24,336 nucleotides of DNA from a virus. Taxonomy: Duplodnaviria > Heunggongvirae > Uroviricota > Caudoviricetes. Below are positions 19,945 through 20,234 of this stretch, piece by piece. Every line of letters starts with the position of its first letter. Positions within the stretch are counted from its first letter, which is position 1. The notes under the pieces were generated by a model, which was not told where the DNA came from, did no database searches, and saw nothing but the letters and a program-made list of their open reading frames with translations. The stretch lies in IMG/VR virus record IMGVR_UViG_2740892113_000002. One strand, 5' to 3'. Both the position numbers and the translations under genes were made by a program.

Positions 19945-20234
19945 AGCCTCCTCCCGGGTCCAGAACGCACTCAGCCGGGTATGGTTCAGCCCATTTTTCC
20001 CGGCGTCTCATGCCGCAAATGTTAACTGCTGCCTGGTTAACATTTGCTGAAAAAGCCTGTTAACATTTTTTCCGCACAACAAACTGAATAATAAAGATAA
20101 AAACCGCAAAAATGCCCGGGCAGCCAGTTAACATGTTAACTGCCCTGAAACGGGAATTTTTTCTCTGCGTGAGAGGGGGCGCGGTGTCCAAAGCGATCGT
20201 TTTTTACGCCGGATGATACCCCCCCCGGGTTGGG
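19945..20234. promoter_or_regulatory. Candidate cos / terminase-recognition region between the HNH endonuclease and TerS, with repeated GTTAACAT motifs and two perfect palindromes
   Basis: Five copies of GTTAACAT/ATGTTAAC within about 125 bp. Perfect inverted repeat GCAAATGTTAAC-N9-GTTAACATTTGC (about 20015-20047) and perfect 18-bp palindrome CAGTTAACATGTTAACTG (about 20125-20142). GC-rich tract GAGAGGGGGCGCGGTGTCC lies nearby. Location matches HK97-like cos placement. Confidence 0.5.

Follow-up and report, generated by a model that had tools for sequence, protein, structure and literature searches.

Comparison with related phages supports the stretch between the HNH endonuclease gene and the small terminase gene (terS) in this 24,336-nt segment of viral DNA (the window) as a DNA-packaging (cos) site, with a cut site already known from a near-identical phage. 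We consider it likely, at a probability of roughly three in four, that this 290-bp spacer is an HK97-style, HNH-associated cos of a BP-4795-like Stx/lambdoid prophage and that the five copies of the motif GTTAACAT within it form a cosB-like array recognised by TerS. The source prophage itself may be defective.

The window carries the gene order HNH–spacer–TerS–TerL–protease-capsid fusion–portal, all on the minus strand:
20235–20600, minus strand: HNH endonuclease gene (121 aa; Pfam HNH, PF01844, E 2.7e-7), adjoining cos and upstream of it with respect to late transcription
19381–19944, minus strand: small terminase gene terS (187 aa, GTG start; Pfam Terminase_2, PF03592, E 1.3e-8)
17723–19384, minus strand: large terminase gene, TerL (553 aa, HK97 gp2 family; Pfam TerL_ATPase and TerL_nuclease)
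15722–17659, minus strand: prohead protease-capsid fusion (645 aa; Peptidase_S78 and Phage_capsid in one protein)
12925–15510, minus strand: HK97-family portal (861 aa; Phage_portal, PF04860, E 6e-81)

The spacer (19945–20234) is flanked by the HNH gene and terS. The original prediction had described it as preceding terS, which holds in the minus-strand sense because all genes here lie on that strand, and as non-coding, in agreement with the absence of a conserved ORF from the spacer. A small ORF starting at the ATG of the palindrome described below was considered and rejected as not conserved, comprising 24 codons in the window, 14 in a diverged phage lineage (L134) and four in a satellite-like island (L144). 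The HNH gene is separated from the predicted overhang by 51 nt and from terS by 290 nt, and its product is 69% identical to the HNH protein of Salmonella phage FSL SP-016. Residues 2–57 of TerS correspond to positions 1–56 of the PF03592 profile, the N-terminal 57 residues representing the DNA-binding end of Terminase_2. TerS also gave weak PDB matches to the DNA-binding domains of SF6-type small terminases (4ZC3, 2CMP and 3ZQP; E 0.19–0.81), and its first 60 residues are about 75% identical to those of FSL SP-016 TerS. TerL is a full-length homologue of HK97 gp2 (BLASTP, 23% identity over 489 aa, E 2e-11), both Pfam domains being present in each protein. The portal protein has a long C-terminal extension past the Pfam portal domain (residues 54–382). 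Just upstream of the HNH gene, on the opposite strand, lies a DUF3950 gene (20642–20842, plus strand, 66 aa; Pfam E 3e-19), located between the lysis and packaging modules and the sole plus-strand gene in the neighbourhood.

The position of the cut was derived from two relatives with mapped virion ends. PhageTerm analysis of Lys8385Vzw virion DNA gave 10-nt 3' cohesive ends with the sequence CGCCCCCCCT (PMC7946995). This Stx1-converting phage, whose cos belongs to the BP-4795/phage 2851/YYZ-2008 group, has the same element, HNH, TerS and TerL as the window; it is 96–97% identical across the spacer region and 97.3% identical in TerL, and the overhangs differ by one substitution (CGCCCCCCCT there, CGCGCCCCCT here). 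The Lys8385Vzw record ends with GGACACCGCCCCCCCT and starts with CTCACGCAGAG (CTCACGCAGAGAAAAAATTCCCG), a boundary that aligns to 20173/20174 of the window. Since CGCGCCCCCT at 20174–20183 is the homologue of the mapped overhang, the packaged DNA is predicted to start at 20173: by homology, the top-strand nick falls between 20174 and 20173, and the virion left end at 20173 would run towards terS. In Xanthomonas phage Xop411, ligation of the ends with and without Klenow revealed a 9-nt 3' overhang (PMC2248197). This phage is a distant relative (TerL 47.6% identical), and in a base-by-base alignment its left end CCCATTCGCAGAAAAATTACCCG matches up with CTCACGCAGAGAAAAAATTCCCG of the window, starting at +1. 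The record of phage OP1, which does not include the overhang, starts at the homologous +1. Two further record ends were discarded as end evidence: that of phi330 starts at the terS/terL junction and represents an arbitrary linearisation, and that of vB_Pae_CF53a is partial, its end carrying an inverted-repeat artefact.

Thus, the mapped ends of both Lys8385Vzw and Xop411 align to 20173/20174, as expected of the cos region that had been proposed. From the same alignments, the earlier guess that a G+C-rich tract holds the nicking site was right, the predicted overhang falling in that tract by homology. The competing possibility of pac packaging with permuted ends is countered by Lys8385Vzw, a near-identical phage that was classed as cos with 3' cohesive ends. 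The elements of the spacer, in the direction of packaging, are:
20219–20226, minus strand: poly-G tract, reading G8 on the minus strand and stopping 45 nt short of the top-strand nick
20174–20183, minus strand: predicted cosN overhang CGCGCCCCCT, a 10-nt 3' cohesive end, by homology to the mapped cos of Lys8385Vzw
20147–20189, minus strand: conserved cos core, GGACACCGCGCCCCCT joined at the nick to CTCACGCAGAGAAAAAATTCCCGTTTC, including an A6 tract at +12 to +17, from alignments
20125–20142, no strand: perfect 18-bp palindrome CAGTTAACATGTTAACTG, +32 to +49 from the nick, formed by two overlapping copies of GTTAACAT
20067–20124, minus strand: A/T-rich 58-nt segment with T-tracts about 9–10 nt apart (TTTTTGCGGTTTTTATCTTTAT) and a partly conserved TCTTTATNATTCA block
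20059–20066, plus strand: copy of GTTAACAT (minus strand AAAAAATGTTAAC), invariant in 49 distinct relatives
20015–20047, no strand: inverted pair of GTTAACAT copies with 100% complementary 12-nt arms and 9 nt between them, from a repeat search
19945–20014, minus strand: terS leader with the Shine-Dalgarno sequence GGAGGAGG (19947–19954), read directly from the sequence

Alignment with related phages, which had been suggested as a way to a conserved cosN, showed the core at 20147–20189 to be nearly invariant among the window, the diverged phage and the satellite-like island. It is recognisable across orders, namely in prophages of Enterobacter, Citrobacter, Pseudomonadales and Burkholderiales and in the Xanthomonas phages OP1 and Xop411. 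Position 20180, the fourth overhang base on the minus strand (CGC[N]CCCCCT), occurs as all four bases among otherwise identical IMG/VR cos cores; because this base varies, the cohesive ends of co-resident relatives may differ by one base. Runs of at least seven G are retained in nearly all short- and long-spacer relatives as well as in the satellite-like island. The tract may be a cosQ-like element or one acting on the HNH/TerL side.

The motif GTTAACAT occurs exactly five times on both strands of the window, at 20019–20026 (minus), 20036–20043 (plus), 20059–20066 (plus), 20127–20134 (plus) and 20133–20140 (minus). All copies are thus located within 20019–20140 and none elsewhere. In dinucleotide-preserving shuffles of the whole window (n = 100) the expected number was 0.47, and five copies were reached in 0 of 100 shuffles, so that the count given in the original prediction is exact and well above chance. 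Both perfect palindromes it had listed are present as well, the 12-nt-arm repeat at 20015–20026/20036–20047 and the 18-bp sequence at 20125–20142. Because the 18-bp palindrome is made of two overlapping motif copies and the core of the 12-nt-arm repeat of two more, motifs and palindromes amount to one observation, not three. Relative to the cut, all five copies are on the packaged side, from +34 to +155, in the order palindrome (+32 to +49), 58-nt A/T-rich segment and three further copies. Between the predicted cosN and terS, these five conserved repeats occupy a position as would be expected for lambda-type TerS-binding elements. The GTTAAC cores, as calculated from the motif coordinates, are spaced 8, 68, 23 and 15 bp from centre to centre; helical phasing was considered, and these spacings follow no simple pattern. 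An intrinsic bend of the A/T-rich segment is possible, to judge by its T-tracts.

The spacer is 95–100% identical in 94 phage records, including BP-4795, phage 2851, YYZ-2008, 1717 and many Stx1a, Stx2a and Stx2c phages, and it is 100% identical in E. coli 4/1-1 and B-2207. Of 5426 complete E. coli genomes, 1277 contain the packaging module, often more than once and up to seven times; it is a very common, BP-4795-like packaging type of E. coli Stx/lambdoid prophages. In one group, the PPompW prophages (L213 2775–4233, PPompW_699, LC567826), the IS110-family element ISEc20 abuts the poly-G end of cos at about position 20222 of the window, followed by tRNA genes and Q; cosN and the motif array are kept, and the HNH and lysis genes are missing because these sequences adjoin the poly-G end in their place.

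Sequence conservation across the array was concentrated in the motifs. In 49 distinct long-spacer sequences all 38 motif columns were invariant, whereas 36 of the 84 interspersed columns varied (Fisher, one-sided p = 6.5e-8); conservation p-values of this kind treat columns and related sequences as independent and are overstated, because relatedness and column dependence are ignored. The diverged lineage L134 is identical at 108 of 122 positions across the array and has kept all five copies and their spacing, its drift affecting inter-motif bases and the 74 nt past the last copy. Likewise, the 12-nt-arm pair retains its 8-mers and 9-nt spacing in both L134 and L144, and the outer arm bases and the sequence between the arms have changed.

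To place the array in a wider context, we compared 80 genome loci with related TerL genes (Enterobacterales, Pseudomonadales, Burkholderiales and others) and a further 120 IMG/VR loci carrying the cos core. HNH–cos adjacency is conserved over the 80 genome loci. A common plan emerged. A poly-G tract precedes the nick by about 45 nt, and GGACACCGC leads into the overhang; on the other side of the nick come CTCA..CAGA(A)6TTCCC, a Shine-Dalgarno sequence and, at about +33, an inverted element of the form GTTAA(C)..(G)TTAAC. In the IMG/VR loci the distance from the nick to the terS start is either 38–39 nt (53 loci) or 227–230 nt (59 loci). FSL SP-016 belongs to the short class, in which the terS start codon falls within the inverted element (GTAAAC-ATG-TTAAC, translated as M-L-T); GTTAA..TTAAC at about +33, over the terS start, was found in the 53 short-spacer IMG/VR loci and in 47 genome loci. 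The window belongs to the long class: the palindrome stays at +32 to +49, and terS starts about 190 nt further on, at +230, with GTG CTG ACA, where the element has been lost. Three further ATGTTAAC copies lie between palindrome and terS and resemble old terS 5' ends, e.g. ATGTTAACAGG.

Codon usage at the terS start provided additional evidence. The Leu codon following ATG(GCN) is TTA in 33 of 39 non-enteric relatives (85%), at loci of 58–67% G+C, and TTA accounts for 0.5% of the 2077 Leu codons in terL of the same relatives. The enforcement of this rare codon therefore indicates selection of the TTAAC half-site at the nucleotide level. The TerS N-terminus, M(A)LTxxKR.., is conserved from Enterobacterales to Burkholderiales alongside the motif element. 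We propose from these comparisons that the motif nearest the cut is an ancient element, the putative ancestral recognition element of the whole phage family.

Two variant arrangements were observed among the relatives. In short-spacer phages (e.g. L003 3509–3614, L030, L044 and L090) a direct repeat flanks the nick, with GGGTGT(C/T/A)AAC or AGTAAACAT at about −38 and a near-copy at about +30, the variants co-occurring by clade; this pattern suggests recognition sites on both sides of the cut, like pacL/pacR of SPP1. The upstream copy has degenerated to GCGTAAAAAAC (20200–20210) in the window. The low-G+C IMG/VR loci L127 and L145 share the same cos core and carry two direct AAAAGTTAAAG repeats at about +30 to +60 after the nick, followed by a terS that starts MALTEK, a motif variant usable for analysis of TerS–site covariation.

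The overlap with the terS start raises the question of a role in gene expression, the motifs acting as an operator or RNA hairpin that controls terS translation, or as a promoter. TerS binding could repress translation or transcription of its own gene in short-spacer relatives, since there the element overlaps the terS start, and the plus strand contains a promoter-like match (TTAACA-18 nt-TAACAT with an upstream TG, 20037–20066) that arises from two motif copies. We gave this match low weight, as it consists of motif copies, is oriented antisense to the late operon and lacks a target in the vicinity. Against such a role, the element of the window lies 190 bp from the real terS start, which no longer contains it; the satellite-like island keeps five copies without terS or any downstream gene; and GUUAA/UUAAC would form a weak 5-bp stem only. 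No intrinsic terminators were found on either strand between 19800 and 20900, and RNA folding of the spacer was not significant (z = −1.5; 13 of 200 shuffles as good). As the inverted element keeps its distance from the nick and not from terS, it is tied to packaging and not to terS expression, and a function of the motifs in gene expression is improbable.

The satellite-like island bears directly on the packaging function. This PICI-like element of 11 kb (L144 1–11730, IMGVR_UViG_2563366903_000013, equivalent to L210 1002–12000 in E. coli S1-CAM-02-A, NZ_CP145707) is inserted at tRNA-Pro between yejM and yejO and has cos at its right end. Its genes encode an integrase, ash, an Icd-like protein, a D5-type primase, SSB, PerC, a lambda-E-like capsid protein and a decoration protein, and the island lacks HNH and terminase genes, with nothing encoded downstream of the cos site. 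The island nevertheless retains the poly-G tract and the 40-nt cos core, along with the palindrome and three distal copies, whose spacing is conserved. Compared to the window, 38 of 38 motif columns and 54 of 84 non-motif columns are identical, and identity drops to 29 of 74 directly past the last copy. The terS leader at 19945–20014, covered by the latter stretch, is by this alignment outside the conserved packaging signal. The island thus represents a natural deletion test, in which an element needing only packaging has kept exactly these pieces. This cos type was detected in 48 of 5426 complete E. coli genomes.

These data also bear on the idea that duplication of terS 5' ends left the three distal copies behind as neutral relics without present function, only the cos core and perhaps the palindrome being of importance. 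The copies read ATGTTAACAGG.., like the short-spacer terS start ATGTTAACAGGGCAGAAGCG, agreement between the L144 copy and such a start extends over roughly 18 nt, and short-spacer phages package with a single element. Relics should decay, yet the 8-mers are invariant in the 49 distinct sequences; 8-mers and spacing are also kept in two lineages that are about 80% and 70% identical in the array and whose neighbouring bases have changed, and identity to the island collapses just where the last copy ends. Duplication would explain the origin of the distal copies, not their invariance, and we regard it as highly improbable that they are mere relics. They may be accessory rather than essential, however, because one palindrome is enough for short-spacer relatives such as FSL SP-016.

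Taken together, packaged-side position, invariance, retention by the satellite and the ancient element near the cut make TerS recognition sites, comparable to lambda cosB, the most likely function of the GTTAACAT motifs. The conservation evidence as such identifies a constrained DNA element and not its binder, and in a cos site of this kind GTTAACAT might instead be bound by a host nucleoid protein, the HNH protein or TerL. The A/T-rich, possibly bent segment between the motif groups is in line with such a binder, and lambda cosB needs IHF besides Nu1. However, no match to the IHF consensus WATCAANNNNTTR with one mismatch or fewer was found in 19945–20234, the best candidate by alignment, ATTCAGTTTGTTG, having two mismatches, and we know of no host-factor consensus that matches GTTAAC-type palindromes. 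The motif element has also been kept from Enterobacterales to Burkholderiales together with the conserved TerS N-terminus, which fits a phage-encoded reader, and to our knowledge recognition falls to TerS in all cos or pac systems characterised so far. A binder other than TerS is therefore unlikely. Of the earlier suggestion that the repeats are terminase or host-factor binding sites, the terminase part has gained strong comparative support at the sequence level, and the host-factor part found no counterpart in an IHF consensus.

With TerS as the probable reader of the array, packaging could proceed as follows. The terminase and, probably, the adjacent HNH protein would introduce staggered nicks around CGCGCCCCCT, generating the 10-nt 3' overhang, and the packaged DNA would extend from 20173 towards terS. 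The N-terminal helix-turn-helix domains of a Terminase_2-type TerS oligomer would recognise the motif array, the palindrome serving as the primary site, followed by the A/T-rich, possibly bent 58-nt segment and then three accessory sites. Bound TerS would position the HK97-family TerL and the HNH protein on the GGACACCGCGCCCCCT/CTCA core. In the lineage of the window, terS would have moved 190 bp away, and the three copies resembling old terS 5' ends would have been added. In this scheme the anatomy of the motifs, their conservation and the homology to ends mapped in two relatives are observed, and from these we infer the binding by TerS, the requirement for HNH and the bend.

The HK97 paradigm invoked in the original prediction applies in part. 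The order HNH–cos–TerS–TerL, the 10-nt 3' overhang, the poly-G tract and the TerL family all agree with it; the TerS family does not, and pairwise comparison of the window HNH protein with HK97 gp74 gave no significant similarity. As in HK97, an A-tract lies within 30 nt past the cut, the putative TerS site is on the packaged side, and TerL and the portal family are homologous. In HK97, a G9 run is located 42 nt before the right end and a T7 tract at +24 to +30. The TerS site of HK97, experimentally defined at +15 to +29 downstream of the cut, contains the T-tract/A-tract (PMC11331095). A requirement for, or stimulation by, the HNH protein in cos cleavage by TerL has been shown only for gp74 (PMC11331095). 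Unlike HK97 gp1, which has no Pfam match, the TerS of the window is a Terminase_2 protein of the SPP1/SF6 type, and from these Pfam results the recognition subunit is of a different family. Because the HK97 site is a single asymmetric 15-bp sequence, in contrast to the five-copy palindromic array of the window, and is read by a TerS of a different family, it provides a topological precedent only. The gene order after TerL differs as well (protease-capsid fusion, then portal, in the window; portal, protease, capsid in HK97).

The array resembles lambda cosB (R3-I1-R2-R1, bound by gpNu1 and IHF) in having short repeats in both orientations, split by A/T-rich DNA, between the nick and the small terminase gene. 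It is unlike lambda in that the region has no IHF consensus, TerS and TerL are unrelated to Nu1 and gpA, an HNH partner is present, and the overhang is 3' in the relatives of the window as opposed to the 12-nt 5' overhang of lambda. With SPP1/SF6 G1P the module shares a Terminase_2 TerS with an N-terminal helix-turn-helix, and recognition in SPP1 occurs via repeated short boxes (pacL/pacR) near the cut site. SPP1 packages by headful, in contrast to the fixed cohesive ends that the near-identical phage implies for this module, and the TerL acting with this TerS is of the HK97 type and has an HNH partner. Cos-type satellites are known, e.g. SaPIbov5 with HNH-cos helpers. The backbone of the L144/L210 island (int, primase, capsid-like and decoration genes) is like that of the E. 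coli PICI EcCICFT073, including a helper-type cos at the end. Known relatives of the island have a lambda-type cos, EcCICFT073 itself combining a lambda-type cosN with a different cosB (PMC6092414). Unlike that element, the island carries the window-type HK97-style cos with the whole motif array.

The published work on Lys8385Vzw gives the end sequence only and makes no mention of the motif array, the poly-G tract or the palindrome (PMC7946995). Full-text searches with the strings CGCGCCCCCT, GTTAACATGTTAAC and GGACACCGC returned unrelated papers only among the matches listed. The searchable literature yielded no account of the poly-G tract, of the five-copy array with its origin in a family-wide element that overlaps the terS start, or of the acquisition of the whole array by an EcCICFT073-like PICI. 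The repeat array appears to be undescribed. As a tentative wider reading, to which we would assign somewhat less than even odds, the palindrome would be the ancestral TerS site of Proteobacteria-wide HNH-cos phages, normally located about 33 nt past the cut over the terS start, where it would force TTA in loci of 58–67% G+C and might enable TerS to sense its own gene or repress it. In the E. coli Stx/lambdoid lineage the palindrome would then have lost its link to terS and multiplied to five copies, and a lineage of EcCICFT073-like PICIs would have copied the whole array for packaging by these phages.

These results do not overturn current models; they supply a cosB-like element for a family with a known cut site. 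Cos-plasmid or cosmid-style transduction tools for these phages could be built on a defined recognition array, which would also permit prediction of the prophages and satellites that share helpers and would offer a natural system pairing an SPP1-type small terminase with an HK97-type TerL and an HNH nuclease. Given the occurrence of the module in so many E. coli genomes and in numerous Stx1, Stx2a and Stx2c phages, this packaging signal would govern the encapsidation and spread of Shiga-toxin phages and their satellites.
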